Source of the DNA: a phage
DNA length: 64,000 bases
Assembly (NCBI GenBank): GCA_028030915.1
Contig: GCA_028030915.1_4867.1
Direction: 5' to 3' (one strand)
Below the pieces are notes generated by a model. That model saw only the letters and a list, made by a program, of their open reading frames with translations, was not told where the DNA came from and did no database searches. The translations under genes and the position numbers were made by a program. Below are positions 25,814 through 44,234 of this stretch, one piece after another. The stretch's first letter is position 1, and every line of letters starts with the position of its first letter.

Positions 25814-25906
25814 TCACGTCATATAACGCACGACCATCGTGAGGACCATTAATCCCAGTAAAATGGGCATTAAGCCTTTCGGCCAGTCGTCGTTGTCGTA
25901 TTGCAT
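25814..25906 (-). CDS. small hydrophobic peptide (30 aa), possible lysis-associated membrane peptide
   Basis: hand-found: ATG 25906 with ggaggg SD; MQYDNDDWPKGLMPILLGLMVLTMVVRYMT; stop 8 nt before the DUF1353 start; below the ORF-track cutoff. Confidence 0.3.
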   Translation of the reverse strand: MQYDNDDWPKGLMPILLGLMVLTMVVRYMT

Positions 25907-26790: not shown

Positions 26791-28968
26791 TTATGATAAC
26801 GATTTCTTTGGCCGCTCCCACGGTTTAGGGGCGGATTTGGTATACGGATTACATTCCATCATCTTGCCGAGATACGCATCGTAATACACGAAGCGATCGA
26901 CATAGAACTTCTCCACCGGTGCACTACTGGTAGCCGATTTCACCCGGTTGCGTTCCACAGCGAGGTTAATCGTCCCGGTAGGCGCGGGTTTTAGCGTGAA
27001 CATCACCGCACGGTTGTAACGCCAAGTGTCGTGCACAATATCAAACTCCGATACACTGTGTGCCATGATACCAAACAATGTGGTGCTCGGTAAATTGGCT
27101 ACAGCATCACCGTATGGTGTTCCCACCAAACCGCCGGGTATGTTTTGCTTTTTGAACAGCGTACCTGAAATAATCGTACCTAAGAACTCCACAACTACAG
27201 GCTTGGTTGGGTCGGTGACTTTATCTATCCCATCCGCACTGGCCAGTCGATTGGCATCTAAAACTGCGAGGTAGTCGAGGAACTCTTGGTACTCGTCGGT
27301 AACATTCGGTTTCACCGTTCCGACGGATACCCAGTTGACGATACTTTTATTCCCACCGACAGCTTCGCCTGCCATCCCAGGGCGAGTCCATGACATCCCG
27401 TCTTCACGACCGTAGACATAGACTGGCGAGCCGGTAGCCGGGGTGTTCCATTGCTCGAACGCTGTATATCGTCCCGGCTGGCCCCAATCCCCACCCGGAC
27501 CGCCATAGTAGCGACTCTGGTAGCCGGTAAATTGCGCGACGACTAACTGGGTAGCACCGCCTTTGTCACGGGACCCAGCTAAGCCGTTACGGTTATTGGT
27601 GCCGCTGGGCACCGCCGCGCCTGGCCCGAGAGGCGCACCACCAGCTCCACCGATCTTGGTGGTGCTAAACGCATAGTAGTCGCCCCCACCCCCACCTCCG
27701 GCGATGGTGCCGTAGTTTTCGATGGTGACTTTGCCACGGAAGGCATCGGTAATGTGGATTGCGTCAGCTCCGTCTGCTGATGTGTTCGCAGGCAGAGAAT
27801 AGACCATACCCGAACCACCACGACCAAGAATGGTTCCCCGGTTAACGAAGTTCCAAACCACCTCGCCAATTTGCGGCAATTCGTCGATAACGAACGTCGG
27901 TTTCAGGTTGCTGTCGCGATAAACGAAAGCCCCTGCATCCACGGTCACGTTAACAAACAAACGCCCGCACGCCGCATGGTTGGTCAACGTCGTGGCCCAG
28001 TAGCTGTCCGAAACTTGCGACGTAGTTGTGTAGTTCAGGTTAAGGGTTTGCTCGTTATCTTGATAGCGTGCCACATTCAACGTGGCACTGCCCATGACTT
28101 TGTACGAACCCTCCACGGGTGCCAATTGCACTTGTCTTGGCCACTCGCCTGCCAAGTTCTCTACAGGAGCAATTTCGTTTACATCAAAAACACTCCGAAT
28201 GCCGAGTGTCTCGATGGCCAGAGCATCGTGCAGGCTACCGGTGAAATCATCCGGGACGTATGTGGTTTTGCCTGCATATGTCTCGAGTTTGTTACGTGAA
28301 AAGAACACATACTTCGTTCCAAACATCCCGCTCCCCGGTCTAGCGGTCAAAGCCACGACGCTGTTATACGCAGAGGTTTGGCCTATATCCTCCGGGGACA
28401 TCGGGGCGCTGACATCGACTTTATCAAGATCCACGATCCGTTTGGCTGCATTAGAGTAGAAGTTAATCCACTGCTGTTTATTCGCAGCCTTTAACGTGAG
28501 AATGATATTGGTAACAGTGTAGACGGTGTTGATATCCACGTCGCCGTTTATCACATCTAGCGTTTGGCTGCCGTACCAGACAAGACTTGTCTGTTTCGCC
28601 TGGAACGTGATGCGCGCAGCATTGTTTGTCCAAGTGATAGGCAGGTCTTCAAAGTCGTCGGTTAAAAAGGTAATCCCCAGTAAAGTGTCTAAATGCGGCA
28701 ACAGTTCGTGAATGGATGCACAAGTGGGAATGGCATCCAACTTAACCTTAGCGAAATAATCAGCAATATTTTGCTTCGTGACTTGGGCCGTAATTTGACC
28801 GTAATTTGAATACCCCGGACCCCCTGTCAGTGTGACGTCTAGGGTTTTTTCGTCACGATGCGCCACGGACACCAGGCGTACGTTAGCGGGGTCTACTGCT
28901 TTGGCGACCGCGTTTTTACGGTTGAGCGACCGAATCACGGTCGCCACTAAATCAGGAGTGTAGGACAT
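26791..28968 (-). CDS. Gly-rich fibre-like structural protein (725 aa) with C-terminal PYTKSAPKPW tag
   Basis: Gly-rich tracts (TIAGGGGGGDYY, GGAGGAPLGPGAA); C-terminal NPYTKSAPKPWERPKK resembles the C-terminus of the upstream 439-aa protein. Confidence 0.6.
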   Translation of the reverse strand: MSYTPDLVATVIRSLNRKNAVAKAVDPANVRLVSVAHRDEKTLDVTLTGGPGYSNYGQITAQVTKQNIADYFAKVKLDAIPTCASIHELLPHLDTLLGITFLTDDFEDLPITWTNNAARITFQAKQTSLVWYGSQTLDVINGDVDINTVYTVTNIILTLKAANKQQWINFYSNAAKRIVDLDKVDVSAPMSPEDIGQTSAYNSVVALTARPGSGMFGTKYVFFSRNKLETYAGKTTYVPDDFTGSLHDALAIETLGIRSVFDVNEIAPVENLAGEWPRQVQLAPVEGSYKVMGSATLNVARYQDNEQTLNLNYTTTSQVSDSYWATTLTNHAACGRLFVNVTVDAGAFVYRDSNLKPTFVIDELPQIGEVVWNFVNRGTILGRGGSGMVYSLPANTSADGADAIHITDAFRGKVTIENYGTIAGGGGGGDYYAFSTTKIGGAGGAPLGPGAAVPSGTNNRNGLAGSRDKGGATQLVVAQFTGYQSRYYGGPGGDWGQPGRYTAFEQWNTPATGSPVYVYGREDGMSWTRPGMAGEAVGGNKSIVNWVSVGTVKPNVTDEYQEFLDYLAVLDANRLASADGIDKVTDPTKPVVVEFLGTIISGTLFKKQNIPGGLVGTPYGDAVANLPSTTLFGIMAHSVSEFDIVHDTWRYNRAVMFTLKPAPTGTINLAVERNRVKSATSSAPVEKFYVDRFVYYDAYLGKMMECNPYTKSAPKPWERPKKSLS

Positions 28969-28982: not shown

Positions 28983-30302
28983 CTATAGCGGTGGATACCA
29001 AGGGACCGGGGCGGTTTTGCTATATGGACTGTAGACCATATAGCCGCCTTTGCTTGGGTCGTAATAGATGAAATAGTTACAGTAATTCGAGTAGAGGCTC
29101 GTCAATTGTTTGGATTGGTATCCGTTACGGTATAGTCCCTGGTAAGTAATAGCCGATGTCGTGGTGGTGTAAGCAGTGTGGTACAGTACCCGACGCCGGT
29201 TAGCAATACTTTCTTGGAACATCTCTTCGGTCGGAAACGCGTGTTGCATCAGCCGTCGAATACTCCCGGTACAGTATCGAGTGCCATACGGGGAACCCGT
29301 TAAATCATCCATTGTTTCAGGCGCTTCCGCCCGAGTCAACACGTACTCGTTTTGATACAACGTGACGCTCATCGAATTTGAGCTGGTTTCCCGGAACCTC
29401 ATGTAACGCGCATAACGTTCGACGTCCTCTTCCTGCGCCAAATAGGCCACGTTATTTTTCGGACCAAAGTGCAAGAAGAACGGACGGCGGAGATTACCCA
29501 TATCCTCAGGTGGCGTCAACTTCACGCAGTAATTGTACTCCCCACGCATATCAGGGTCTAAGCCTGGGTTGTTATTGCGTGTAGCGACATACCCATAGAG
29601 GTCATACGGGTTATCGGTAGCAGCATTACTGATGGTGAACGGGATGCCAGACCATGCCGACAGCGCCGCGATAAACTGGGTCATGTACGAGTTACTGTTT
29701 AGTCGCAGCGGGGTACCCATTGGAATATTGATTATCTGTTGGGTGTACATGCTCCAGTCGAGTCGATAGACCGTGCTGTAAACATCCATGGGTTCCCAAG
29801 CCCCGGTTTCGGTGGTGTGGTACAAGTCGGCAAAGCTGGGCTCTTCACGAATAAAGCTAATAGGAATGTGACCCGTGAATGCGGGGTTATCCGATTTAAT
29901 CGCCACCGTCCGATCGCCCGTTGCCACAGTGATCATTGCAAACTGGCTGTCGGGATACGTTAAATCGTCAGCAGTAAGCACCAACCCACATGCTGCGGAA
30001 ATCCGGTCGATGATGTCGCGGTAGACCGTCGCCCGATAAGGTACTTTAACCGGTACGCTGACGCCTTTAAAATACTGCGAAAGGTTTAAGCGGTCGTAGT
30101 AGATGTCCATCTTACCGCTGTAACCGCCACCCTGTAATCCGTTTACCACTATACGGCTGTTGCGGCCATCGCGCAAGGCATTGGTTAAAGGACCTTGTAA
30201 TAACGCCACGTTGGTTGCGTTGAGTGGTTTCTTGAGCTGCGGGTTATCACGATTAATCTGATCCCAAACCAGCTGCATGACAGGTTTGTTATAGTTGATC
30301 AT
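28983..30302 (-). CDS. paralog-family protein, A-type variant (439 aa) with C-terminal SPYSKTAPVPW tag
   Basis: family N-terminus (...INRDNPQL...MDIYYDRLNLSQYF); C-terminus SPYSKTAPVPWYPPL instead of NGELDGF. Confidence 0.6.
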   Translation of the reverse strand: MINYNKPVMQLVWDQINRDNPQLKKPLNATNVALLQGPLTNALRDGRNSRIVVNGLQGGGYSGKMDIYYDRLNLSQYFKGVSVPVKVPYRATVYRDIIDRISAACGLVLTADDLTYPDSQFAMITVATGDRTVAIKSDNPAFTGHIPISFIREEPSFADLYHTTETGAWEPMDVYSTVYRLDWSMYTQQIINIPMGTPLRLNSNSYMTQFIAALSAWSGIPFTISNAATDNPYDLYGYVATRNNNPGLDPDMRGEYNYCVKLTPPEDMGNLRRPFFLHFGPKNNVAYLAQEEDVERYARYMRFRETSSNSMSVTLYQNEYVLTRAEAPETMDDLTGSPYGTRYCTGSIRRLMQHAFPTEEMFQESIANRRRVLYHTAYTTTTSAITYQGLYRNGYQSKQLTSLYSNYCNYFIYYDPSKGGYMVYSPYSKTAPVPWYPPL

Positions 30303-30310
30303 TGCAACGT

Positions 30311-30350
30311 CCTAAAAAAAGAAAATAGGCCCTGAAGGGCCTATTTTTAG
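30311..30350. terminator. rho-independent terminator
   Basis: hairpin aggccctgaagggcct with T-runs on both strands; between the A-gene remnant and 28983..30302. Confidence 0.55.
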
Positions 30351-30376
30351 CTGCTATGGTGAAGTACGCTATCCCT

Positions 30377-30469
30377 TTAACTCCAGCTGATTCGACCTGC
30401 GTGTTGGGGATTATCCCGCTGAATGAGCCGACACAACAGCTCAAGTGCAGTGGATGAGTAAAACCCCAT
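30377..30469 (-). pseudogene. 30-codon remnant of an A-type paralog N-terminus
   Basis: ATG 30469 with caggag SD; translates MGFYSSTALELLCRLIQRDNPQHAGRISWS then TAA; compare A3 MGLYSAPELELLCQQVVRDNPELAGRISADS; sits where a fourth A gene would follow C3. Confidence 0.5.
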
Positions 30470-30480
30470 ATTAGCTCCTG

Positions 30481-31383
30481 TTAGCTAAGAACCAATTCGA
30501 TAACGTGGACTACCGACGCGCTATCGGTCGAATAGGTATACGATGGTGAGTCTGGTGAGTTGCTGCGATAGTACCAGGCGTTGTAGATGTCACGACCGTT
30601 GGCAAACAATGTTGCGCTTGAATCGGTTGGACTACCGCCGGAGCGCATCGGTAAGTCGCCAAAACGTCTTACGACGCCCGCGTACCGGAACAAGCTTGCG
30701 AACGTGTTGTGCCACTCGCCGTCTTGAAAATAACCACCGCTGCTTAGGTAGGTGCTGTGCCCATAACTGTAGTCTCCGAGTCGAGGCAAGCGTACCACAT
30801 ACTCGTAACCGTCTTTATTAAATGTCCGACGCTGGTTAGTGGTAGTGACGCCCCCTGGCGGGAAACCGTAGTCATCTGTTCCCCAGGCCAGACCTTGCCG
30901 GTATTGTTCTTCCCACGTCGTCCCTAAACGGGTCACCGTGTCAGGAATGAACAGAATGCGTCCTTTGAAAACGAATTTATGGAACAATGTTGGAGCTTGG
31001 TTCCAGGCATTAAAGCCAATTAAACCATTCAGCTCGGCATGGTTAAGAATAAATTCTTCGTTTGTCAGTGTGCCAAAGTAGCCACGATGCCAATCGCCAC
31101 GAATAAGTTCCTGTGGGCCGGGCCCTGTCATTGGAAAGTCGCCCTGTACAATCGGCAGCCCCATAACCTTTTCAGTGCCCTTTACCGCCACGATGCGATA
31201 TTGATACGTTTTATACGCCTCGGTGGTCGTGTCCTCGTACGTCGTTGTGTTACCTGGTAGTGTTACAATAGGTTCCCCCGGTGCCACTGGGTTAACACTT
31301 TGTCTAGGGTTGTCGTAACGATAGATTTCAATGGAATCTAAAGTCTGACCTGGCTGTTGTTTCCAGTTTAAGATAATCGACAT
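30481..31383 (-). CDS. module protein C3 (FN3-like N-terminus plus shared GPGP/GYFG domain), 300 aa
   Basis: MSIILNWKQ...IEIYR...YQYRIVAVKG beta-sandwich-like N-terminus; TGPGPQELIRGDWHRGYFGTLTNEEF; paralog of C1 and C2. Confidence 0.65.
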   Translation of the reverse strand: MSIILNWKQQPGQTLDSIEIYRYDNPRQSVNPVAPGEPIVTLPGNTTTYEDTTTEAYKTYQYRIVAVKGTEKVMGLPIVQGDFPMTGPGPQELIRGDWHRGYFGTLTNEEFILNHAELNGLIGFNAWNQAPTLFHKFVFKGRILFIPDTVTRLGTTWEEQYRQGLAWGTDDYGFPPGGVTTTNQRRTFNKDGYEYVVRLPRLGDYSYGHSTYLSSGGYFQDGEWHNTFASLFRYAGVVRRFGDLPMRSGGSPTDSSATLFANGRDIYNAWYYRSNSPDSPSYTYSTDSASVVHVIELVLS

Positions 31384-31386
31384 GTT

Positions 31387-32385
31387 TTACTCCACTAACT
31401 CGATAACGAATGCGTACAAACCGACCTTCTCAGCACTATCAACTAACGTAACTTGGGAGAGGTTACGTTTCGACGTATTGGTTATGCTTGAATCGATAGG
31501 CGCAGACCCGCGAACCAGAACTAATCCCGATTCAGGATCACGTTCTTGGCACAAGAAACCTTTGCCTTGGTAAGCGCTACCGCTCCCATAAATGGACGCT
31601 GGACTAATATTAGTCCAGTTAGGGAGCATTTGTTTGTTAGGGATACATTCTCCGAACGGATAAACAAAATCGTTATATTCGCAGCGACCATATTCCAAGT
31701 CATCATGGTCTGCGTTTCGCAACGATTCATCCAATGTCATTACTGTCGGTTCGTCCCCGTCGGTTAAACCGCGCAGCAATCGCATCCGATAGGTGTCGCC
31801 TTGCCATTCAAACAACCCACTCTGGTCAACACCTGCCAAATCCCCACGTCCGTTATCAGGACCAAATCCATCAACACCGTACACAAGCCCCGCGTTATAA
31901 ATGTCATTCCACGAGTAAAGTGTAGAGTTAAATCGTCCGCCGCTGTTCATCATGTAGTAAACTTTACCATGACGATAAAACTTGTTCATGATTAGCGTGC
32001 CCGTGCCCGATATCCCTGTTAATGCACGAAAGCCTGCAGGCAACGCGTCATAGGTCATCTGTTCTTCGAACGGCAACTGCCCCAGAAACGCCAAGTCGTC
32101 AGTATCGGAATAGTTAATCTGGTCGACGCCACCCACACCACGACGGTTTTTAATGACAATGGATTTTTGTGGACTACCTACGGTACGACCGTTAACAGTT
32201 ACTGTTAAAAGATACCAGTAACGGGTGTTAAGAATAACGGTTTCGTCCGTCCATTCCGTTTCGCCATTACTTAAAGTTGCAATAGGGGCTGGTAATGCGG
32301 CTGTATTTATTTTAGCCGTGCCCCGATAAATGTTAACAATTGAACCTGCCGGATTTTCATTTTTCCAGCGTAGTGTGAAAGCCAT
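31387..32385 (-). CDS. module protein B3 (FN3-like N-terminus plus shared domain), 332 aa
   Basis: MAFTLRWKN...VNIYRG...YWYLLTVTVNG; paralog of B1 and B2. Confidence 0.65.
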   Translation of the reverse strand: MAFTLRWKNENPAGSIVNIYRGTAKINTAALPAPIATLSNGETEWTDETVILNTRYWYLLTVTVNGRTVGSPQKSIVIKNRRGVGGVDQINYSDTDDLAFLGQLPFEEQMTYDALPAGFRALTGISGTGTLIMNKFYRHGKVYYMMNSGGRFNSTLYSWNDIYNAGLVYGVDGFGPDNGRGDLAGVDQSGLFEWQGDTYRMRLLRGLTDGDEPTVMTLDESLRNADHDDLEYGRCEYNDFVYPFGECIPNKQMLPNWTNISPASIYGSGSAYQGKGFLCQERDPESGLVLVRGSAPIDSSITNTSKRNLSQVTLVDSAEKVGLYAFVIELVE

Positions 32386-32395
32386 CTGTTACTCC

Positions 32396-33838
32396 TTAGA
32401 AGCCGTTCAACTCACCGTTCGCGGTTGCTAAATCTGTTTTAAGTGGAGGTTCTGCCTGAGTAGGCGGTAGTGGACGCGGTGCGTCGACGTGTGGTTCAAG
32501 TACAACCATCGGCCTAACTGTACCTACGCTCTTCGACACTGTCGATAACGGCAGCGCAGTATCGACGTTTGGTTCACCCACCACAATCGGGCTGATAGGT
32601 TCTTCCACCTGTTCCGCAGTTGTTGCTAGAGGTCTCGGCGCATCTGTTGTCGCAACCTCGACTGCAAGAGGGCGAATGCTATCAGGTTGTGGTGATGGTA
32701 CATTAGGAATAACCCTAACGCGCCACACAACATCCCCTTCCACATCAGCTAAAGGTAAGACGATGTCGTCCTTATTGATTTCCTCTAAAACAGGCCACCA
32801 GTAAGTGGTATCTGCAAGGGTTACCCATTCAACTGAGCCACCGCGCATATTGCAACGTTGTACTTTAACAGGGTTACCCCCGGTTAACAGTTGTTGCGTG
32901 AAGAAGACGGTGGTTCTGGTTAACGTGGTGTCATTTGCCCAGTCGCCACCCGTAGAACCGTCACCGAGTTGTGAAATAAGCCACAACGGCGTGGCCTTTG
33001 ATAAATCAGGGCTAACCGGAACGGAGACGCGGTAATAATGCGTCTTGTTATTCTCAGTTTTCGTGACAATCAAAGCCTGGTCAACAGGTTCGATACCGTC
33101 TGGATACGGACCAGCGTCACCTGTACCGAAAATGGCACCCGCTTGATAAAGGGCCGTCCAGGTTGCTGTTAACGTTCCGGTAGTCGGTAGATAAACAATC
33201 TTACCATCCTTGAAAAATTTCAACCACTCGAAAGTCATTTTCGTTGGGGCAATATCAGGACGAATTAGGTTGTTTAGTTCAGCAAAGGTAAATAACTCTT
33301 GCTGAGAAACGTGGCCGAAGTATCCGTTTGTGCTGTCCCCTGCCAACAGATATTTATTGCCTGGCCCAGAATCTGGATAGTACCTTACGGCTTCATTCAA
33401 ATAATCGACCGGGATATAGCCGCGATAGCATACGCTATTATACGCGGTTAAATTAATACGTGTTGGCGTTGCCAGCGATTTGATAGGCGCGTCTACCGAC
33501 TGTACACTGCTATCAGATAACCAAACACCGTATAAATCGCGTAGAGCTGGGAGAAGATCCCGCACGGTCTTGGCCGTTTGTGGTACGTAGACGCGCGGAG
33601 CTATTTTAAATAGATCTGATAATGTTAAACGGTCGTAATAGACCGTTATTTCCCCAGAGAATCCTTTACCGGGTTTACCTACCAACGTAATCACCGTGTT
33701 ACGACCATTCTTAGTGGTCTCGGCAGGAATACCCCTCACCCCAATCGAATCAGCACTGATTCGACCTGCGAGTTCAGGGTTATCCCTTACAACCTGTTGG
33801 CAGAGCAGTTCCAGTTCGGGTGCGCTATACAATCCCAT
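32396..33838 (-). CDS. module protein A3 (family N-terminal domain, central GPG/GYFG domain, C-terminal xPRPL repeats plus NGELNGF tag), 480 aa
   Basis: N-terminus nearly identical to A2 (MGLYSAPELELLCQQVVRDNPELAGRIS...ITVYYDRLTLSDLF); ends ...ATANGELNGF. Confidence 0.65.
   Translation of the reverse strand: MGLYSAPELELLCQQVVRDNPELAGRISADSIGVRGIPAETTKNGRNTVITLVGKPGKGFSGEITVYYDRLTLSDLFKIAPRVYVPQTAKTVRDLLPALRDLYGVWLSDSSVQSVDAPIKSLATPTRINLTAYNSVCYRGYIPVDYLNEAVRYYPDSGPGNKYLLAGDSTNGYFGHVSQQELFTFAELNNLIRPDIAPTKMTFEWLKFFKDGKIVYLPTTGTLTATWTALYQAGAIFGTGDAGPYPDGIEPVDQALIVTKTENNKTHYYRVSVPVSPDLSKATPLWLISQLGDGSTGGDWANDTTLTRTTVFFTQQLLTGGNPVKVQRCNMRGGSVEWVTLADTTYWWPVLEEINKDDIVLPLADVEGDVVWRVRVIPNVPSPQPDSIRPLAVEVATTDAPRPLATTAEQVEEPISPIVVGEPNVDTALPLSTVSKSVGTVRPMVVLEPHVDAPRPLPPTQAEPPLKTDLATANGELNGF
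33605..33838. repeat. nucleotide-level repeat (A3 5' region) shared with A2
   Basis: about 230 nt visibly near-identical to 37015..37247 (ggtcgtaata..ccgttatttccccag..tcctttaccgggtt..cctaccaacgtaatc..ttggcagagcagttcca..). Confidence 0.6.
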
Positions 33839-33849
33839 GAAGTCTCCTG

Positions 33850-34749
33850 TTAAGGCAGAACGAGTTCAAGTACCGCAATAGAGCGTATTGTAGCGGTACC
33901 GTAGTTACCCCATAACGGCGACTCTGGGTAGGGTGGACGGTTGTACCACTGAGCGGACAAGTTAACCATAGCCGCAAAGAATGCAGATTGTTGGGCAGTA
34001 ACCGAATCGATTGAACCGACCGGAAGGTCGTCAAAGCGCGGAAACTGCCCACTGTAGTTGTACAGGCGCGCGAAGGTGTTAAACCACTCACCGTCGAGAT
34101 ACAACTCGGTGTTACCGCTTCCAACGAAAGACGTCCAGTATTTGTAGTCGAACAAATACGGCAAGCGCACCACGTATTCGTAACCGTTTTTCGTCACCGT
34201 GCGGCGTTGGTTACGTGCACTAGCCCAGCTCGGCACATATCCGTTGCCATCCTGGCCGTACATCAGCCCCTGGTTATAAATGAACTGCGGGCTAGCGTAT
34301 ATTATCGAGTTATCGGACATAAACAGAATACGGTTTTTGTAAATGAACTTATGCCAGGCACCAACGGCGGAACTGAACATATTCACCACGAGGCTGTTCA
34401 GTTCCGCGTTAGTGAATAACTCTGCTGGCGTTACTGTTCCAAAGTATCCGGCGTGCCAGTCGCCGTATAACAGTTTCTGGGGGCCAGGCCCGGTGTCTAA
34501 AAAGAACCCTTGGGCGGTAGGGGTGTTGAAGACACGCTCACCGTCTTTAACCGCAGCTATCCAATAACGGTAAGTGGTGTTGTTTTCCACAGCGTTGTCT
34601 TCGTACGATGTAGCGTCACCCGGAAGGGTTGCCAGAGGCGTTCCCGGTGCATTAACATCAATGGTGGCGTTGCCCGGCGTCTTGCGATAGATTTCAATGT
34701 TATCGAGCGCCTGTGGCTTCCGTTGTGCAAAGTTTAATGTAATAGGCAT
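33850..34749 (-). CDS. module protein C2, about 299 aa
   Basis: start refined to ATG 34749 (gagga SD; listed start is TTG 34785); MPITLNFAQ...IEIYRK...YRYWIAAVKD; TGPGPQKLLYGDWHAGYFGTVTPAELF. Confidence 0.65.
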   Translation of the reverse strand: MPITLNFAQRKPQALDNIEIYRKTPGNATIDVNAPGTPLATLPGDATSYEDNAVENNTTYRYWIAAVKDGERVFNTPTAQGFFLDTGPGPQKLLYGDWHAGYFGTVTPAELFTNAELNSLVVNMFSSAVGAWHKFIYKNRILFMSDNSIIYASPQFIYNQGLMYGQDGNGYVPSWASARNQRRTVTKNGYEYVVRLPYLFDYKYWTSFVGSGNTELYLDGEWFNTFARLYNYSGQFPRFDDLPVGSIDSVTAQQSAFFAAMVNLSAQWYNRPPYPESPLWGNYGTATIRSIAVLELVLP

Positions 34750-34751
34750 GA

Positions 34752-35738
34752 TTAATCCTCGATAAGCTCGATTACTGGAATCCAAATACCGCCGGTCGCA
34801 CCAGGGACATGTTGTATACGCTGGAGGTTATCCACAGTATCAGTGGAATCCGCCGCCGCCCATCCGCGCGTCAGCCCCAACTTACTGTCTGGGTCAAACT
34901 CCTGACAATGCGCCCCACGGCCTGCCACCAGCGATCCACTTCCGAATATGCTGGTGTTCGACCACTTTATCAGGGACATCACTTTTTTCTTTTCTGGGAA
35001 CCAGCTACTTATCCCATAGATGAGTCGGTTGTATTCGCTATCGGCAGTATACGGCGACTCGTCATGGAGTTTACCGTTCCACTGTGCGTCGAGTGTCATG
35101 ACCGGGCTTTCACTGTCGAGCGTTAACCCGCGCAGCAGGCGCATCCGATAGCGGTCACCCAACCACGTAAACTCCCCAGCCTGGTCAACGTCAGGTAAAT
35201 CACCATGACCGCCTTCCGGACCAGGTCCCGCCACACCGTACAGCAAACCCGCGTTATAAATCGCATCACGGCTATACAGCGTGTTGCCGTTCACACGAAG
35301 ACCACTAAACAGATACAGAATTTTACCGTCTAGCTGGAACTTCATCAAGCCCGGCTTAACAGTTGGGTCGTATCCAGAAAGGGCCACAAACCCTGGCGGA
35401 TAATCACCCGCGCTAGGTAATTCACCGTACGCCACGTACCCGTAATACGCAAAGCGGTCATCACCGTACTGTGGAGCCACGATGCCGATACCGCGACGGT
35501 TCTGAATCAGAATTGATTTCTGCGGACTGAACAGTGTCCGACTTCCCACTGTCACGGTGGTCATGTAGTAATACGTTGTCCCCAGTATCGCTGTTCGGTC
35601 AGTATACTCAGTTTCCCCGTTAGTGAACGTTGCCAGGGGTTCAGGTAATGCCGTACGCACCAGAGGTTTGGTGTCGCGGTACAGCTTCACGGTCGAAGCC
35701 CCAGAGTTATTGTTCGTCCAACGAATTGTAAAAGCCAT
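34752..35738 (-). CDS. module protein B2, 328 aa
   Basis: MAFTIRWTNNNSGASTVKLYRD...YYYMTTVTVGS. Confidence 0.65.
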   Translation of the reverse strand: MAFTIRWTNNNSGASTVKLYRDTKPLVRTALPEPLATFTNGETEYTDRTAILGTTYYYMTTVTVGSRTLFSPQKSILIQNRRGIGIVAPQYGDDRFAYYGYVAYGELPSAGDYPPGFVALSGYDPTVKPGLMKFQLDGKILYLFSGLRVNGNTLYSRDAIYNAGLLYGVAGPGPEGGHGDLPDVDQAGEFTWLGDRYRMRLLRGLTLDSESPVMTLDAQWNGKLHDESPYTADSEYNRLIYGISSWFPEKKKVMSLIKWSNTSIFGSGSLVAGRGAHCQEFDPDSKLGLTRGWAAADSTDTVDNLQRIQHVPGATGGIWIPVIELIED

Positions 35739-35750
35739 TGTCGTTACCTC

Positions 35751-37247
35751 TTATTGGAATCCATCCAACTCACCGTTAGTATCGCCCAGAGTAATTTTTG
35801 AAGGTTGGGCGATTTGGTCAGTCGTGAGAATAATCGGTCTAATCTTAACGCTAGCCATGCCTGTTACCGCGACGGAATATGCACGTTCATCATTGTCCGT
35901 CGTGGCAAGCAGAGGACGTGGTGAGTCTGATGACGCTTCCCGTACCCAGGCAGGGGTGGCAGTTTCGGTGTTGTCGGTGTTGAAAACTAACGGACGTGGA
36001 TTCGCTGCGGCGGAGGTTTCCGTAATAGGCACCACACGAAGAGATTCATTTTGGTCGATGTCCGTCAGAGTAACCACGGACGGTGCCCATGTTAATTCTG
36101 CACCTTCGTCAATCAACGGCACAGGTTCATTGGCAACATCAAACATCTCCAAGATTGGCCAAAAGCCAGAAGAGGTGTAGATGTAGGTGTATGAACGATA
36201 GCTCCCACTGATAGACTGGTAATACGCTTGGTCGGCACCGAACTGGTGTCGTAACCACACGTAATCCAGGAAGTTAGCATCAGTCGTGCTAAGAGTTCCC
36301 CACTCCCCATATACGTTCACCGACCCCAATTTGCTGGTCAGTGACAGGATAGAGGTGATTGACGGCGGTTTACTCCAATCAGGCGCGGCGGCGTTCTCGG
36401 TGTAATACGGGATAGACATTCTGAAATAATGCGTTCCTTCATCATCCCGTTTTACCATGTATTTCAACTGTTCAACATCGACAGGTGTGTAAGTCGACTT
36501 CGGGCGAGGTCCTGCGTCTCCGGAATCAAATATTGCACCCTTGTTGTACAGGTCTGCCCAGGTAACGTTGCAAATCGCACGGGTCGGAACAAACACTACC
36601 GCCCCATTCAGAAAGAATTTGAGCCACTTGATAGCGTAGCGGTTAGGCCAGTTGGTGCCGTTATAGAGGGCATACACCATTTCATCAGATGTGAATAACT
36701 CTTCCGCGCTTACCAGCCCAAAGAATCCGTATAACTCATTACCGGCCATTAATCCTTTTGGCCCAGGGCCCGACTTCGGATACATCGCAATCGGTTCGTA
36801 AACATAGGTCATCTTGCATGACCCGGTATAACACAAGGAGTTAGCGTGCGCCGTCAGAGTTACAGTTTCCGGCGTAGCGTATTTCATTAATGCAACGTTT
36901 GGACTGGTGATGTCACTCGCGGTTAAGTTCAACCCGTTCAATTCATTGAACGCCGGTAACGCTTCCGCATGGGTTTGTGCGCTACGTGGAATACTCACCA
37001 TATTCGGGCCAGACTTAAATAGACTGGCCAGATTCAACCGGTCGTAATATACCGTTATTTCCCCAGCAAATCCTTTACCGGGTTTTCCTACCAACGTAAT
37101 CTGAGTGTTTCGTCCGTTAACGTTTTTCGCAACAGGAACACCCCTGACCCCAATGGAGTCAGGGGTGATTTTTCCTGCTAAACCGGGATTGTCACGCACA
37201 ATTTGTTGGCAGAGCAGTTCCATTGAAGGTTCTGTATACAACCCCAT
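35751..37247 (-). CDS. module protein A2, 498 aa, C-terminal NGELDGF tag
   Basis: MGLYTEPSMELLCQQIVRDNPGLAGKIT...ITVYYDRLNLASLF; xPRPL repeats; ends ...GDTNGELDGFQ. Confidence 0.65.
   Translation of the reverse strand: MGLYTEPSMELLCQQIVRDNPGLAGKITPDSIGVRGVPVAKNVNGRNTQITLVGKPGKGFAGEITVYYDRLNLASLFKSGPNMVSIPRSAQTHAEALPAFNELNGLNLTASDITSPNVALMKYATPETVTLTAHANSLCYTGSCKMTYVYEPIAMYPKSGPGPKGLMAGNELYGFFGLVSAEELFTSDEMVYALYNGTNWPNRYAIKWLKFFLNGAVVFVPTRAICNVTWADLYNKGAIFDSGDAGPRPKSTYTPVDVEQLKYMVKRDDEGTHYFRMSIPYYTENAAAPDWSKPPSITSILSLTSKLGSVNVYGEWGTLSTTDANFLDYVWLRHQFGADQAYYQSISGSYRSYTYIYTSSGFWPILEMFDVANEPVPLIDEGAELTWAPSVVTLTDIDQNESLRVVPITETSAAANPRPLVFNTDNTETATPAWVREASSDSPRPLLATTDNDERAYSVAVTGMASVKIRPIILTTDQIAQPSKITLGDTNGELDGFQ
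37015..37247. repeat. nucleotide-level repeat (A2 5' region) shared with A3
   Basis: see 33605..33838. Confidence 0.6.
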
Positions 37248-37260
37248 GGTATTTACTCCA

Positions 37261-38184
37261 TTACGGTAAGACTAATTCAAAAGCAAAGAATATCGTGGCC
37301 GAGTTCCCGACACCTGCGGTGTTACTAATCCCCATAGGCACGGTGCCATACGCATAAGCGAATATGTTGTTGCTCCACAAAGGAGCTAATACAGCGGCAC
37401 CTGACTCATTCGGCTGCGCAGTCGCGCCTTGTCTTTCAAGTGAGTCAATCGCACCAAGACCGAGGGCTGCGTACTGTGCACCGACAGGATACAAACGGCC
37501 CATTGTGTTTCGCCATTCACCGTTGTTGTAATCCTGTCCTGAGAGTGCCGCGTCGTACGGGACTGCGTAAGGTAATCGGATACGGTACGTACGACCATCC
37601 TTCGTGACCTTACAATCTTGTTTAGTCGCCGTGGCTCCCTGCGGAACAATACTTCCGACATCATCGGTCCCGTACATCATGCCGTACTGATACGCCATTT
37701 GTACCGAGTTGCTTTTCGAATGCATCGTCGCTGGGAAGAAGACAATTCGCCCACGGAAAATAAACTTGTGCCATTCCTGAGGGTCGTAAGTAAACATGTT
37801 TCCCTGCTGCGCGGTTAACATGAGTTTTAACTCGGCAGTATTAAAGAACTCGGTATTAGATACCGTACCGAAATAGCCTGACGCCCAATCGCCACGCAAA
37901 ATAGTTTGTGGCCCCGGTCCAGTGTCCGGATAGAACCCTTGCGTAATCGGATTGCCGATAAGTCGTTCATTATCTTTCACAGCAGCTACCCAGTAACGAT
38001 AAGTTGTATTCTTCGTCAGGGTATCGATATTATCTACGAACTCTACCGCGCTACCGGATAAGGTGGCGTGGGGTGTGCCTGGGTTGTAAACGTCGATTGT
38101 TGCGTTCCATCCTTCCTTGCGGTAGATTTCAATCGCGGTAAGACCTTTGCTGGCTTGGGACGGCCAGCTTAACCGTATAGTCAT
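37261..38184 (-). CDS. module protein C1, 307 aa
   Basis: MTIRLSWPSQ...IEIYRKEG...YRYWVAAVKD; TGPGPQTILRGDWASGYFGTVSNTEFF. Confidence 0.65.
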   Translation of the reverse strand: MTIRLSWPSQASKGLTAIEIYRKEGWNATIDVYNPGTPHATLSGSAVEFVDNIDTLTKNTTYRYWVAAVKDNERLIGNPITQGFYPDTGPGPQTILRGDWASGYFGTVSNTEFFNTAELKLMLTAQQGNMFTYDPQEWHKFIFRGRIVFFPATMHSKSNSVQMAYQYGMMYGTDDVGSIVPQGATATKQDCKVTKDGRTYRIRLPYAVPYDAALSGQDYNNGEWRNTMGRLYPVGAQYAALGLGAIDSLERQGATAQPNESGAAVLAPLWSNNIFAYAYGTVPMGISNTAGVGNSATIFFAFELVLP

Positions 38185-38193
38185 GACTGCCCC

Positions 38194-39192
38194 TTACTCG
38201 ACCAGTTCAAAGATAGGGTAGTAGCGCCCTTTCGTGGTGGGTGATAAATAGTTTATACGCTGAATCGTGGATACGGGTGTTCCACCGGCATTGTTAAAAA
38301 TACCACGATGGAGCACACGGTCTTCCGCGGTGTCGTGTTCCATACAGAGAACACCACCGCCGAAATACTGTGCCAAGGTTCCCAAAGTACCCTGCCCCAG
38401 AAAAGTATAACTGTTCGTTGCCCAGTTAGCCCAACGCTGTTTCCACGGCACCTCGTTAACCATCGTGTAAAGTAAATCGTTATACTCACACGGGTTGGTT
38501 AGAGAAGCGATTTCATCGTGGGTTTTCCCATTGTAGTCAGCTACGAAAGGATACGCAGGAGACTCGCTAGACGTCGTCAGGCCGCGAGGAAGACGCATAA
38601 TGTACGTATCCCCTTTGTGGACTATCTTAGCGTCTTGTGGAGTGGCTGGTAGCGTTCCATGGCCGTTCTCTGGGCCAGCATCGCCTGTACCATAGACTAA
38701 ACCAGCTTGATAGAGGGAAGCCCAGTCCACAGGCGTATTCGGGAACTGCGACGTGCTAGATAGCATGTAATAGATCTTCCCGTTTCGGGTAAATTTATAC
38801 AACGCCACACGATCGGTTAGTAGGTTAGGGAACATCGCCAAAAATGCAGGTGGCATTTGCGACGGAAGCCACTGTTCGTCGTAAGGAACCGCACCCATAA
38901 ACCCTAAACGGTCGTCACCGTTTAGAATAGTCATTGGACCGATCCCACGCTTTATCTCAATGGTGTATTTCTGGCTAGACGATGCCACTGTTTTACCGTT
39001 GGCGGTTACCGTCAGAAGGTAATAATAGGTTGCGCCTGGTGTGGCGGTGGTATCACGCCATTCTGTCTCGCCATTTGAGAGCGTTGCAATCGGTTCAGGC
39101 AAAGCGCTTGGTGTGATATCTTTAACATCACGGTAGATTTTTACTACCGTAGGGATTACGTTTGGATTTTTCCAACGCAAAGTAAAAGACAT
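38194..39192 (-). CDS. module protein B1, 332 aa
   Basis: MSFTLRWKNPNVIPTVVKIYRD...YYYLLTVTANG. Confidence 0.65.
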   Translation of the reverse strand: MSFTLRWKNPNVIPTVVKIYRDVKDITPSALPEPIATLSNGETEWRDTTATPGATYYYLLTVTANGKTVASSSQKYTIEIKRGIGPMTILNGDDRLGFMGAVPYDEQWLPSQMPPAFLAMFPNLLTDRVALYKFTRNGKIYYMLSSTSQFPNTPVDWASLYQAGLVYGTGDAGPENGHGTLPATPQDAKIVHKGDTYIMRLPRGLTTSSESPAYPFVADYNGKTHDEIASLTNPCEYNDLLYTMVNEVPWKQRWANWATNSYTFLGQGTLGTLAQYFGGGVLCMEHDTAEDRVLHRGIFNNAGGTPVSTIQRINYLSPTTKGRYYPIFELVE

Positions 39193-39203
39193 AGATGATA
39201 CCT

Positions 39204-40616
39204 CTACTTAAAGCCGTCCAGTTCACCGTTAAGAGACGTTAACGTTGTCTTGTCAGGGGGCGTATACATTTCAGCGGCGGCTGCAATAGGTTGGAAGTCG
39301 ACTGTCTTCGGCAGCATTAAAGCAGGCGGATGCAGTGCGAAACTGTTTTCTGAAGTAACAACTACCGGTTCGAAATCGGTAGTATCCGGATTACCGAGCA
39401 CTAACGGCTTGAGACTAAATGTGTTTTCTGCGGACACGCTGCACGGTTGGAGACTGTAATCTACCGCACCATGGATATCTTCTAAACCCAAGGTAACTGT
39501 GGACTTATCCACCAACTCCAGCACCGGGAACCAGTAGTAGTTGCCCGCACTCGATGATTTTTCTAAGTTTGTCCAACTGGCTCCAGACAACGTCGCCATG
39601 CGATGATTGGCGACGTTGGTGTTCAGTGTATCTTTCAATAAACAGAACAGCGACCAGTAACTGTTAATCGGTTTGTCCCACGTTCCATTATACAGAAAGT
39701 TGAACATCTCAAACTCACTACCTGCTAACTCAGCGGCAGTTGGGGTGCCGCTGACATATGGGTCCTTCCCAGCACTAGGTAGACGAACGCGGAAGTAAAA
39801 CCTTTTATTGTCTGCGCCTGTAAAGCTAATGATGCGTCCCTGGTTAACGGGCGTCGCCGCAGGGTATTTACCATTATCGTCTGTTCCGTAAACGAGTCCG
39901 TTTGTATATAACGTATTCCAGGAGATGGAGCCAGCGACAGGACTGATCGGGAGGTAAATAACCCTACCCTGGTAAAAGAACTTGTACCAACCTTCGGCAC
40001 CAGAATGTACCGGTGGTAACGCACCGGCCGATATAGTGGCATTAAGAAGTTGAGAGTGTGTAAACAACTCTGCAGTTCTGGTTGTTCCGAAATAACCCGC
40101 GATAGTGTTACCTTGCAGCAACGTTTTAGGGCCAGGTCCAGAATCGGGGTAAATTGCACCACTCGGGACGGTATAACGTATCGTTAAGCTGCCTGTAAAC
40201 GCAGGGCAATTGCCTGAGATATTTAATTTCAACGTCTGCGGCGAAACGCTCGGTTTAGGTAAACTTGCGTCAGGTGACTGCAAATCAGAAGCAACTAATG
40301 TAAGCCCCAATGCGTCGTTTATTGCAGGTAGCGCGTCTCGTACCGTTAAGACTGTATCTTTGATAGCCACAGTCGGCACAAAATTAAATAAAGTGGCCAG
40401 GTTAATCCGGTCGTAGTACACGGTAACATTACCTTGTACACCTGTCCCTGGATACCCGGTGAAAACAGCTTTGGTGTTACGTTGGTTTAACGTAACTGAG
40501 GTTGGGCCACCGGTTAAAGCAGCGATAGCCGGCGTCAACTTAACAACTAAATCAGGGTTATCCCGATTGACTTGGTCGTATACAAGCAGTGCCGACTCCT
40601 TCGAGTAAAATAGCAT
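39204..40616 (-). CDS. module protein A1, 470 aa, C-terminal NGELDGF tag
   Basis: MLFYSKESALLVYDQVNRDNPDL...NVTVYYDRINLATLF; YPDSGPGPKTLLQGNTIAGYFGTTRTAELF; ends ...TSLNGELDGFK. Confidence 0.65.
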   Translation of the reverse strand: MLFYSKESALLVYDQVNRDNPDLVVKLTPAIAALTGGPTSVTLNQRNTKAVFTGYPGTGVQGNVTVYYDRINLATLFNFVPTVAIKDTVLTVRDALPAINDALGLTLVASDLQSPDASLPKPSVSPQTLKLNISGNCPAFTGSLTIRYTVPSGAIYPDSGPGPKTLLQGNTIAGYFGTTRTAELFTHSQLLNATISAGALPPVHSGAEGWYKFFYQGRVIYLPISPVAGSISWNTLYTNGLVYGTDDNGKYPAATPVNQGRIISFTGADNKRFYFRVRLPSAGKDPYVSGTPTAAELAGSEFEMFNFLYNGTWDKPINSYWSLFCLLKDTLNTNVANHRMATLSGASWTNLEKSSSAGNYYWFPVLELVDKSTVTLGLEDIHGAVDYSLQPCSVSAENTFSLKPLVLGNPDTTDFEPVVVTSENSFALHPPALMLPKTVDFQPIAAAAEMYTPPDKTTLTSLNGELDGFK

Positions 40617-40630
40617 AGGGACTCCGCATC

Positions 40631-40660
40631 GCCAAAAGATGGGGCTCCGAAGAGCCCCTA
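40631..40660 (-). terminator. hairpin with short T-run (weak terminator)
   Basis: - strand ggggctcttcggagcccc followed by atctttt; between 40664..41494 and A1. Confidence 0.4.
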
Positions 40661-40663
40661 CAC

Positions 40664-41494
40664 TTAGCTGTTATAGTGGTAGTACGCCACACCTTTCACG
40701 CCGTCTTCATCAATACCCGTTTGGATAACCACACGGTCGTACGATTTGTTAGCGAACTGAGCGGTGGATGTCGGCACATCCTGAACGGTGTTACTGTTCA
40801 GTGGCCCCGCGTAGTTCGGAATACCCAGGTCATCCAACACCTTACGCAAACCAGCCCACTGCGGTAGGCCAGAAGCATCTACTGCCAGTAGGTTTTTATA
40901 CGCGGTAAAGTCAATACCGTACGTCAACAGGTCGATGCACTTCTTACCGAGAGACGGTGAAATAGGCTCTTGAATCGCATTCAAGACATCCGATTTCACC
41001 GAAGTGTCTAGTACCGGTAAACCACGGTTATAACGCAACGTCGCAGAACCGATATAAGCCGGAGATGTCGATAGCGCTGCAATGGTCTGTGTATTGGTGT
41101 AATTTGGGGTATTGGCACCAAACAGTGAGTAGTTTTGGATATCGATTGCGGAGAAGTTTACTCCGTAGGTATCCAAGAGCACCGAAAAGGCTGAGTGGAG
41201 GTTGGGTGCGTCAAACGTGACGAACTGCGCCTGGACGGAAGGCCCCCACGGCAATAACCGCGCTAAGTTCACACGGTCGTAGTAAACGGTGATTGCGTCT
41301 CGAAATCCAGAACCCTGAATACCGCGCAAGCGTGCCGACGTATTGCGGTTGTTGGAAGCTGCATTAACGGGAACCTGTGTCACTTTCTCCACGTAGCAGT
41401 TTGCCGGCGACGCTTTAATAGGCAGGTTTGGGTTATCCCGGTTAATGAGGTCAAAGACCAACTCGTTTGACGGCTTAGCATAGTTGATCATCAA
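40664..41494 (-). CDS. paralog-family protein (about 280-aa class), 276 aa
   Basis: N-terminal family domain (...LINRDNPNL...ITVYYDRVNLARLL); C-terminus ...AYYHYNS. Confidence 0.6.
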   Translation of the reverse strand: MMINYAKPSNELVFDLINRDNPNLPIKASPANCYVEKVTQVPVNAASNNRNTSARLRGIQGSGFRDAITVYYDRVNLARLLPWGPSVQAQFVTFDAPNLHSAFSVLLDTYGVNFSAIDIQNYSLFGANTPNYTNTQTIAALSTSPAYIGSATLRYNRGLPVLDTSVKSDVLNAIQEPISPSLGKKCIDLLTYGIDFTAYKNLLAVDASGLPQWAGLRKVLDDLGIPNYAGPLNSNTVQDVPTSTAQFANKSYDRVVIQTGIDEDGVKGVAYYHYNS

Positions 41495-42382
41495 TTATAC
41501 CTCGCTTGGATCGTCCAGATCGTTGAACTGGAGATACAACGTTCCGACGATGGTGGTACAGGTAACAGGCAGTTTCAACACCAGCGCATACTTGTACTTC
41601 GCGTTTGTCGGCATTGCAACAGGGTCATTCAGACCAACGCTGATAACCTCCGCGCCCGCCAAACCGTAGGAAGCGGAGGTGGTCGCTACCCATGCAGTAC
41701 CCGTAATATCTTTCAGCAGGTTAACCATATCCGTCAACGGCTGTCCGGACAGAATACCCGGCTTGTATGCCAGCAACTCATCACGGTATTTGGTGAAGTT
41801 GTACGGGTAGGAATAAACCTCTGCAATGACCGCAGTAACATTTTCGGAACCCATCTGACCGTTCGGGTATTTCAGACCGGTCAGGACGTTAGTGGTGACT
41901 GCAGAGACTAACGACTCATCGCCTTTCACGACTTTAAATGTCGCCTGTCCAACCCAACCGATAGACTCAGGATGTGCAACAACACGCACAGTTCCTTCAG
42001 TCTTATCACCGTTCCATTCGATATCTGCGTCCTGCAGGTCAGCTTCTTCCAGAACAAAACCGTAACGTTGGTTCAGTCCAGGAATGGCCGCATACAAGGT
42101 TTCGTTGGATGGGCCGATCGCCAACGTGTCACCAATCAGCACTAACAAGTCTTCGACTTTCATGCGGTTGTAGAAGACATTTTTCTTACCCGACCAGGTA
42201 GAGCCCGTTACTCCATCTGCCGTAATTTTAATTTGCGTGTTACGGTTAGTCAGCGTTTCCTTCTCCGTACCACGAATGTCCTTTGGCGTGGACCAGATGA
42301 TATCAGTCATCTTAACAGCAAGCGAGTTCTGTGCGTTCACTGCTGCCAACAGGACGTCTTTAGAAGGTTGATAAATAGCCAT
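41495..42382 (-). CDS. paralog-family protein, 295 aa
   Basis: MAIYQPSKDVLLAAVNAQNS...NVFYNRMKVEDLL; C-terminus ...LYLQFNDLDDPSEV. Confidence 0.6.
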   Translation of the reverse strand: MAIYQPSKDVLLAAVNAQNSLAVKMTDIIWSTPKDIRGTEKETLTNRNTQIKITADGVTGSTWSGKKNVFYNRMKVEDLLVLIGDTLAIGPSNETLYAAIPGLNQRYGFVLEEADLQDADIEWNGDKTEGTVRVVAHPESIGWVGQATFKVVKGDESLVSAVTTNVLTGLKYPNGQMGSENVTAVIAEVYSYPYNFTKYRDELLAYKPGILSGQPLTDMVNLLKDITGTAWVATTSASYGLAGAEVISVGLNDPVAMPTNAKYKYALVLKLPVTCTTIVGTLYLQFNDLDDPSEV

Positions 42383-42392
42383 TCGCTAATTC

Positions 42393-43232
42393 CTAGTTGT
42401 TGTAGTGCAACATACACTCGCCGATTACTTTCGGGTCGTTCTGAATGCCGGTAATCAGCAATACGTTATCGTACGCTTTATTGGCGGTCGCCAACTCACT
42501 CGTTTTGTAGCGGGTAATTGTGCAGTTCGTCGGATCAAACGACGGTACCCCACGTGCGACCAATGTGGCCATCAGATTGGACGTGTAACCCAAATCAAAG
42601 TTACTTCCTACGTCCATTCGCCCGTTCTTAAACGAGGCCATAACCTGCACTTCATCAGTAAAGTCTTCCCCGTACGTCAAGAAGCCCATGTATTTCTTAC
42701 CAGTGCTTGCTGCTGCAGGGTGGTTCAAAGCCGACAAGATGTCGTTTACCACGAGGTCTTCGAGGCTATTCTTACCCCGGATAGACATAAAGGTGATGCT
42801 GCCAGTGTATTGGATACAGCTAGCGTTAATGCGCATCGTGTTGTTTACGTTCAGATAAACGTATTGTTCTGGGATATCATCTGCGACCAGGTTTAACCCA
42901 TAACGACCGTTCAGGTTCTGCGCAAACGCAGTACGTTTCGACTCCACGTTCAACCAACCGTAGGCATTCGGTGCAGTTACCTGAGGTGTCATGTTCTTAA
43001 ATAAGTCGTTCAGCGACAAGCGCTTATAACGGAACGTCTGAGGACCGATATAGCCACGACCTTGACGACCACGAATGATAATCTCAGTATTGGCACCGCT
43101 TGCTGTCGGTGTGATTGCTTTCGGCGTACCGATGATAGCATTGTCTAAACCCATCGGTAGAACAGCATCCGGGTTTTCGGCATTAATCGCATCGTACAGA
43201 TATTGTCGCTGAGACAGACTATATAAAGCCAT
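42393..43232 (-). CDS. paralog-family protein, about 279 aa
   Basis: start refined to ATG 43232 (gaggagg SD; listed start is TTG 43250); ...DAINAENPDA...TFRYKRLSLNDLF; C-terminus ...MLHYNN. Confidence 0.6.
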   Translation of the reverse strand: MALYSLSQRQYLYDAINAENPDAVLPMGLDNAIIGTPKAITPTASGANTEIIIRGRQGRGYIGPQTFRYKRLSLNDLFKNMTPQVTAPNAYGWLNVESKRTAFAQNLNGRYGLNLVADDIPEQYVYLNVNNTMRINASCIQYTGSITFMSIRGKNSLEDLVVNDILSALNHPAAASTGKKYMGFLTYGEDFTDEVQVMASFKNGRMDVGSNFDLGYTSNLMATLVARGVPSFDPTNCTITRYKTSELATANKAYDNVLLITGIQNDPKVIGECMLHYNN

Positions 43233-43251
43233 AATAGCCTCCTCGGCCAAA

Positions 43252-43290: not shown

Positions 43291-43301
43291 GCGAGGCCTA
43301 A

Positions 43302-44213: not shown

Positions 44214-44234
44214 TCTTACTTCCTTTACTCAGGA

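Follow-up and report, generated by a model that had tools for sequence, protein, structure and literature searches.

A probable mosaic gene remnant at the end of the DUF7941 gene array of an SPN3US-like jumbo phage

In the 64,000-nt stretch of phage DNA analyzed here (referred to as the window), an ORF of only 30 codons follows C3, the closing gene of the third of three A-B-C cassettes, at a position where another A gene would be expected. Initial annotation, made from the sequence alone, had read this ORF as the N-terminal fragment of a fourth A-type gene and as a footprint of an actively remodelled array. This raises the question from which gene or genes the ORF descends and whether it is still a gene. 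Based on the comparisons described below, it is very probably a non-functional mosaic gene remnant, i.e., a scar left by recombination where the array of an SPN3US-like jumbo phage meets the gp154-gp155 module.

Genomic setting and position of the ORF

The window was identified as DNA of an SPN3US-like Seoulvirus, with the region of interest sharing 96–98% identity with about 30 Seoulvirus genomes, among them SPN3US, SEGD1, the SPFM series, and SPLA1a. In SPN3US numbering, it comprises seven paralogs of ~280 aa (gp138–144), the three A-B-C cassettes (gp145/146/147, gp148/149/150, and gp151/152/153), gp154 (439 aa), gp155 (725 aa), and the endolysin gp156. An N-terminal DUF7941 domain (PF25613) is common to all A genes, gp154, gp155, and gp138–144. 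Mass spectrometry of tailless particles/mutant assigned the SPN3US "paralog family B" to the head (PMC5694885), whereas DUF7941 proteins of phage Goslar were placed on the peripheral baseplate as host-recognition filaments and proposed to oligomerise via their N-terminal domain (bioRxiv 10.64898/2026.04.21.720040). Since these published locations conflict for the homologues of gp138–gp154 (28983..46741), we refer to the proteins as virion fibre or host-recognition candidates and not as tail fibres. The nine-gene array from A1 to C3 is flanked by two terminator-like hairpins with T-runs (Table 1), the only intergenic ones of this kind in the region, which fits the array as one transcription module.

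Translation of the minus strand of 30377..30469 gave exactly MGFYSSTALELLCRLIQRDNPQHAGRISWS*, as in the initial annotation and in the ORF listing (30 aa, ATG start). The ORF is located between gp153 (C3) and gp154 in a gap left unannotated in SPN3US, while in SPLA5c the locus is labelled "virion structural protein". Its translation signals are intact, with the stop codon of C3 at 30483..30481, an AGGAG motif at 30479..30475, and, after a 5-nt spacer, the ATG at 30469. The same SD-start context (TAACAGGAG) also precedes A3 in the alignment, and the 3' end of C3 together with the SD forms a left homology arm common to relatives carrying a fourth A gene (A4). In every allele seen, SD and ATG were intact, and the ORF was never closed at its start. 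BLASTP confirmed the supposed homology to the N-terminus of the A proteins, with 18/28 identities to A3 of the window (E 1e-11) and 22/24 to the fourth A gene carried by Salmonella phage JN03 (E 3e-14). The predicted tryptic peptides of the product are MGFYSSTALELLCR and DNPQHAGR, the latter under the assumption of no missed cleavage between LIQR and DNPQHAGR.

The sequence was found in about 29 independent Seoulvirus records, which argues against an assembly artefact, and the identical ORF was present in two metagenome/IMG contigs. An exact scan with a 20-mer (ATGGGGTTTTACTCATCCAC) matched SPN3US alone in IMG/VR, one SPN3US-like genome and one JN03-type contig in metagenomes, and, as an unrelated chance match, one Marinamargulisbacteria contig in the GTDB genomes. 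Seven soil contigs from the metagenome scan, with an ORF reading MGFYSSTNVDTC..., had the 20-mer alone in common and were discarded as unrelated. Two overlapping ORFs were also rejected as genes, namely 30289..30444 on the minus strand, which is just the old gp144-type frame continuing through the terminator, and 30356..30457 on the plus strand, which is without support.

Table 1. Coordinates of the features discussed (positions in the window unless another contig is named)
Feature	Position	Strand	Remarks
30-codon ORF (putative remnant)	30377..30469	-	translation and ORF listing; without annotation in SPN3US
Shine-Dalgarno motif AGGAG	30475..30479	-	5 nt upstream of ATG; inside 11-nt spacer past C3 stop
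C3 (SPN3US gp153)	30481..31383	-	closing gene of third A-B-C cassette
A4-derived segment	30403..30469	-	ORF nt 1–67, codons 1–22; 67/67 identical to L029 A4
A3-type segment	30386..30402	-	ORF nt 68–84, codons 23–28 (..AGRIS)
Junction of 140-bp deletion	30386..30389	-	CAGC microhomology; from alignments with SPLA5c and 98-codon alleles
Relic of 3' end of gp144/Phobos-gp143-type (276-aa DUF7941) gene	30347..30385	-	39 nt, out of frame
Terminator-like hairpin and T-run (second flank of A1..C3 array)	30314..30347	-	stem 30347..30322, T-run to 30314
Terminator-like hairpin (first flank of A1..C3 array)	40641..40658	-	with T-run
gp154 homologue	28983..30302	-	439 aa, N-terminal DUF7941; opens gp154-gp155 module
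gp155 homologue	26791..28968	-	N-terminal DUF7941; glycine-rich GP38-adhesin-like region, residues 373–553
Inverted repeat inside A2	37139..37167	-	13 bp, CACCCCTGACTCC-ATT-GGGGTCAGGGGTG; codons ~27–37
30-codon ORF MQYDNDDWPKGLMPILLGLMVLTMVVRYMT	25814..25906	-	between endolysin and DUF1353 gene; hydrophobic stretch
B2/B3 hybrid of SPLA5c	L002 5628..6702		split into two ORFs
Site of lost cassette 2 in L029	L029 6632..8074		recombination in A2/A3 5' ends
A3::C3 relic of JN03	L003 8565..9038
A3::C3 relic of L016	L016 1180..1650
A3::C3 relic of L030	L030 9514..~10000

Three-part composition and allele series

Comparison with the A genes of the window and of its relatives revealed that the ORF is a mosaic. 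Its nt 1–66 are 62/66 identical to A4 of JN03 and only 38/66 to A3 of the window, whereas nt 67–84 are 16/18 identical to A3 and 8/18 to A4 of JN03. This A3-type stretch runs on in the longer alleles of other phages (29/33 to A3 vs. 14/33 to A4). Behind it, 140 bp are deleted, and the resulting frameshift gives the window ORF its WS* ending. In another frame, the remaining nucleotides read ..AGVKGIAYFTIAAKN.. up to the ancestral TAA stop at 30349..30347, and the translation past the junction (..AGVKGIAYFTIAAKNRP) corresponds to the C-terminus of a gp144-type paralog. Derivation from a fourth A gene, as initially proposed, therefore holds for the first ~22 codons, while codons 23–28 are A3-type and the tail is gp144-type; an origin of the whole A part from A4 was ruled out, since it is A3-type from codon 23 onward.

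A full-length A gene at this position, which the initial annotation had suggested looking for in related genomes, was identified in Logan contig L029, with the gene order A1B1C1, A3B3C3, a spacer of 11 nt, a 504-aa A gene directly after the intact C3, its B and C partners, and the endolysin. This A4 gene, starting MGFYSSTALELLCRLIQRDNPQLAVPLDPNTV, is identical to the remnant over nt 1–67, and collinearity between L029 and the window extends from the start of A3 to ORF nt 71 (window 33839–30399). A4-B4-C4 was also found in JN03, metagenome contig L016, and Logan contig L030, in these cases after a decayed cassette 3. Orthologues of A4 with 55–61% identity are the last A genes of Erwinia phages (ChrisDB gp171, Phobos gp152). 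The window resembles the A4-B4-C4 genomes JN03, L029, and L030 in the position after C3, and its SD is shared with L029 as well, but everything past A4 codon 22, including B4 and C4, is replaced by the older A3::gp144-type remnant, the terminator, gp154, and gp155.

Among relatives, the locus comprised 127, 98, 91, 30, or 11 codons, so that a conserved independent short gene, which would have spoken against a remnant, was not observed. In the longest allele (127 codons; P0003, L021, and L022), A3-type codons 1–69 are fused to the gp144-type gene, with TATTAC followed by AATGGGCC at the fusion point, joining ..GPLNSNTV.. of that gene; its 207 nt of A sequence revealed 84.5% identity to A3 of the window, 67% to A2, and 48% to A4. 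The alleles of 98 codons (P0001, P0002, and L023–L028) carry an 87-nt in-frame deletion between (T)GGGG repeats, and the 91-codon allele of SPLA5c has the same deletion, being shorter only since its hairpin loop reads TGA. A further frameshifting deletion of 140 nt at the CAGC microhomology characterizes the 30-codon alleles (window, ~29 phage records, L009, L011, and SPLA3), of which that of SPLA3 has an N-terminus different from that of the window. Finally, E. coli phages EC001 and Lh1B harbored 11 codons, MGLYSALYHNS*, i.e., six A3 codons and the last gp144-type codons. Common to all alleles is a 1-nt deletion destroying the ancestral ..AYYHYNS* ending. The 87-nt deletion has ATTGGGG at its left end, and the inverted repeat in A2 (Table 1) occupies the corresponding position.

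The dual origin was also visible in the longer products. Residues 1–33 of the 91-aa product of SPLA5c matched PHROG 3589 (A family; E 9e-10) and residues 40–88 matched PHROG 1037 at positions 235–284 (of 290), while Pfam matches of the longer alleles covered DUF7941 positions 1–71 and 228–272 (of 276), the latter being the tail in the 98-aa allele. The stretch of tail, hairpin, and gp154 start was 77% identical to the end of Phobos gp143, its hairpin, and the start of gp144. Erwinia phage Phobos and Cronobacter phage CR5 have their gp154/gp155 homologues flanked by the gp144-type gene on one side and the first A gene on the other, so this block stands before A1 there but after the array in the window. 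Based on this synteny, the tail and the terminator are leftovers of the gene that formerly lay upstream of gp154. That they were recently copied from the 3' end of gp144 in the window itself was rejected, since the identity is only ~72% and the terminator differs. For the tail donor, the best matches were 71–77% identical, and none was found at high identity.

Array haplotypes and proposed origin

Altogether, nine array haplotypes were counted, with two to three functional cassettes among near-identical phages, and the proposed remodelling of the array is thus well supported. SPLA5c lost a cassette by recombination between B2 and B3, and L029 is without cassette 2 (Table 1). In JN03, L016, and L030, A3 codons 1–127 run into the final ~34 codons of C3 in a different frame, and this relic acquired additional inactivating lesions, namely a TAA nonsense codon in JN03 and, independently, a 1-nt deletion in L016. 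EC001 and Lh1B, isolated on E. coli, possess only two cassettes. Genomes ending with A4-B4-C4, such as JN03, are without the gp154-gp155 block, and the terminator before the endolysin is common to both types and forms the right-hand boundary of the replacement; thus, the two blocks are alternative terminal modules. In literature searches, neither the remnant nor the cassette haplotypes were found described. SPLA1a and SPLA5c are not equally sensitive to O-antigen glucosylation, and an indel between them in the "virion structural protein" region was noted without analysis (PMC10949491).

The 5' end of the locus is A3-type in the two-cassette genomes SPLA3, L021–L024, and EC001, and A4-type in genomes retaining C3 (the three-cassette window, SPN3US, and L025–L028, and the two-cassette SPLA5c). 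Both types occurred with the 140-bp deletion (A4-type in the window, A3-type in SPLA3) and without it (A4-type in L025–28 and SPLA5c, A3-type in L023/24), and the deletion junction was identical in both backgrounds. In the simplest reading, these four combinations with one identical junction place a crossover within the interval from ~nt 67 to nt 84, at the RDNP motif or shortly behind it, an event that would add or remove a cassette. Taken together, this four-gamete pattern and the nine haplotypes strongly indicate recombination inside the remnant.

Each junction in the history of the remnant was seen directly in sequences, while we infer the order of the steps and their direction (cassette gain vs. 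loss). As a first step, an A3-type gene would have been joined, near its codon 68 (..TVYY), to the final ~50 codons of a DUF7941 gene of the gp144 type, which together with its terminator lay directly upstream of gp154, as in Phobos and CR5, giving the 127-codon ORF. The 87-nt in-frame deletion between the (T)GGGG repeats would then have led to the alleles of 98 and 91 codons, and the 140-nt deletion at the CAGC microhomology, by its frameshift, to 30 codons. Finally, A genes would have undergone homologous recombination at their conserved 5' ends, swapping the first ~67 nt, which could explain why the remnant is A3-like in two-cassette genomes and A4-like where C3 was kept. The same crossover point would divide genomes ending with A4-B4-C4 from those ending with the remnant, gp154, and gp155, and the lineage of the window may itself once have carried A4-B4-C4. 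Survival of SD and ATG would be explained by their being part of the conserved junction of C stop, SD, and A start, and by a recent event.

More speculatively, the left arm of the remnant (3' end of C, SD, and the first ~67 nt of A) and the terminators on the right might constitute a recurrent cassette-exchange site, an idea to which we give rather little credence. If it were true, co-infecting Seoulviruses would gain or drop A-B-C cassettes and swap A4-B4-C4 for gp154-gp155, thereby retuning host recognition. The 140-bp deletion would then also have an effect of its own, since it would separate translation from the hairpin directly ahead of gp154, and haplotypes might differ in host range or in the dosage of gp154/155.

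Coding status, hairpin, and alternative explanations

With respect to the A-type proteins of SPN3US (PHROG 3589; gp145, gp148, and gp151), 28 codons of the remnant align to the extreme N-terminus, and both its SD/start context and the cassette order (C then A) are alike. However, these proteins have 470–504 aa, with an N-terminal domain of ~150 aa and a C-terminal part, while the remnant is reduced to one helix with a frameshifted end and is followed by the terminator and gp154 instead of B and C genes. An AlphaFold2 model of A3 residues 1–160, built with twelve paralogs of the window (pLDDT 85, pTM 0.73), revealed nine secondary-structure elements (helix 8–19, six strands, and two further helices), of which the remnant spans only the first helix plus the following loop; according to the model, its 30 aa fall short of the complete ~150-aa globular N-terminal domain of DUF7941. 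In Pfam, the 30-aa product gave no match even at E<=10 and thus fails the DUF7941 gathering threshold of 27 bits, while the 127-aa product of P0003 scored 51.3 bits and the 98-aa product 24.4 bits. The 127-codon form might therefore retain some activity. The peptide of 30 aa, which may plausibly be made, would be the first helix of the N-terminal domain alone and would have no selected function.

The locus combines homology, truncation, and a disabling lesion, i.e., the 140-bp frameshifting deletion relative to SPLA5c and L023–L028; further lesions in its lineage are the 87-nt and 1-nt deletions and the illegitimate fusion junction. In the 53-codon tails of the three distinct long alleles, a small sample, about 10 nonsynonymous changes stood against one synonymous change, while pN/pS was 0.12–0.31 for gp154/gp155 in the same genome pairs. 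The probability of at least 10/11 nonsynonymous changes is about 7e-4 by our own binomial estimate, in which about 40% nonsynonymous changes were assumed as in the flanks. This pattern in three distinct long alleles points to evolution without purifying selection.

Behind the ORF, the terminator announced in the initial annotation was found as a hairpin, AAAATAGGCCC-TTCA-GGGCCTATTTT, with an 11-bp stem (five G-C pairs) and a 4-nt loop, followed by CTTTTTTT. As a G+C-rich hairpin directly followed by a U-tract, it is a predicted intrinsic terminator, and it dominated the RNA fold in both the minimum-free-energy and the centroid structure. Phobos has a hairpin at the equivalent place in front of its gp154 homologue, with a like layout in CR5, and that of the window was inherited together with the gp144-type relic. 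The T-run ends about 11 nt and the stem base lies about 20 nt before the start codon of gp154 (30302). A promoter would not fit in between, so that gp154-gp155 would be reached by read-through. A promoter scan revealed no excess of sigma-70-like sites (13 vs. 14.3 in shuffles), and an Rfam scan of 30100–30700 gave sub-threshold, hairpin-driven matches (sbrA, 25.6 vs. 45 bits; Atu_C8, 18.5 vs. 50 bits). In 98-codon alleles, the ORF crosses the hairpin up to a TAG stop that overlaps the SD of gp154, whereas in the window it stops about 30 nt upstream of the hairpin, an overlap being confined to the alleles of 91–127 codons. As terminator or attenuator, the hairpin is likely the element still working here, and the 140-bp deletion could alter gp154/155 expression. 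The loop (30333..30336, minus strand) occurred as TTCG (Phobos, EC001, and L021–L024), CGAA (L025–L028), TTCA (window and L011), and TGAA (SPN3US, SPLA5c, and SPLA3); these four alleles form two reverse-complement pairs, suggesting repeated loop inversion of a perfect hairpin and one substitution.

The permanently intact SD and ATG speak against a mere pseudogene and leave room for a small selected product or a role in translation. One explanation of this kind, which we consider improbable, is a leader or coupling ORF, whose translation would control the hairpin and thereby read-through and coupling into gp154-gp155; the 140-bp deletion would shift the stop upstream of the hairpin, uncouple the two, and let the hairpin form. 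Such a role would agree with the lack of promoter room and with the 98-aa products, which end in ..NRPRRAYFLF or ..NRPFGAYFLF, i.e., are translated across hairpin and T-run. But viable phages have stops after 11, 30, 91, 98, or 127 codons, the ancestral layout in Phobos and CR5 is an ordinary gene whose end lies 5 nt in front of the hairpin, and the fold showed no alternative anti-terminator structure that could compete with the hairpin, as a leader-peptide attenuator would have; moreover, late transcription relies on a phage-encoded RNA polymerase, and terminators of such polymerases are not established. Even less credible is a true small-protein gene whose 30-aa helix caps or competes in a head-to-tail DUF7941 filament during virion or fibre assembly. 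The N-terminal oligomerisation proposed for DUF7941 proteins (bioRxiv 10.64898/2026.04.21.720040) would suit it, as would the intact start and the identical ORF in the Seoulvirus records and the two metagenome/IMG contigs, except that identity of the ORF is uninformative in genomes ~98% identical overall. It is contradicted by products of 11, 91, 98, or 127 aa, or of 30 aa with another sequence, in relatives, by the last two codons and the stop stemming from a frameshift, by the neutral evolution of the longer alleles, by the coverage of one in nine domain elements, and by the missing annotation in SPN3US.

A chance ORF or sequencing artefact unrelated to A genes can practically be dismissed: 30-codon ORFs are indeed common (193 ORFs of at least 25 aa in 16 kb), but the BLASTP E values, the 67/67 nt shared with a syntenic full-length A4, and the many independent assemblies refute it. 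We thus prefer the mosaic gene remnant. Pseudogenes or recombination scars in mosaic host-recognition loci are an ordinary and familiar kind of object, with the stf frameshift of laboratory lambda PaPa and the gp37/gp38 mosaics of T-even phages as classical examples of disabled or mosaic fibre loci. As in these, isolates in common use have a host-recognition gene knocked out through a small deletion or frameshift, and modules swap by recombination at conserved segments beside variable parts; the difference is that the remnant is reduced to 28 codons, derives from three paralogs, and lies among tandem three-gene cassettes of DUF7941 proteins specific to chimalliviruses and not in a classical tail-fibre gene. 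SPN3US-like phages are under development for biocontrol of Salmonella and E. coli, and close relatives differ in host range. While unimportant as a gene, the remnant is an exact marker of how the DUF7941 fibre-gene array of these phages is rebuilt, showing that crossovers fall at the RDNP motif, within the initial ~70 nt of A genes, and the haplotype catalogue provides candidate host-range determinants and natural junctions usable for engineering. The comparison also draws attention to a pseudogene that is missing from some annotations and labelled "virion structural protein" in others. The DUF7941 proteins of the Goslar "fibre cloud" (gp86, gp92, and gp161) likewise combine an N-terminal DUF7941 with host-recognition-type domains, corresponding to the GP38-like region of gp155 here, but cassette arrays or remnants are not described in that preprint (bioRxiv 10.64898/2026.04.21.720040).

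Apart from the array, a second ORF of 30 codons was observed downstream of the endolysin gene (Table 1). Gene calls include it in SPLA3, SPLA5c, and all Logan contigs, and, based on its hydrophobic stretch, it may encode a small membrane protein of the lysis region.
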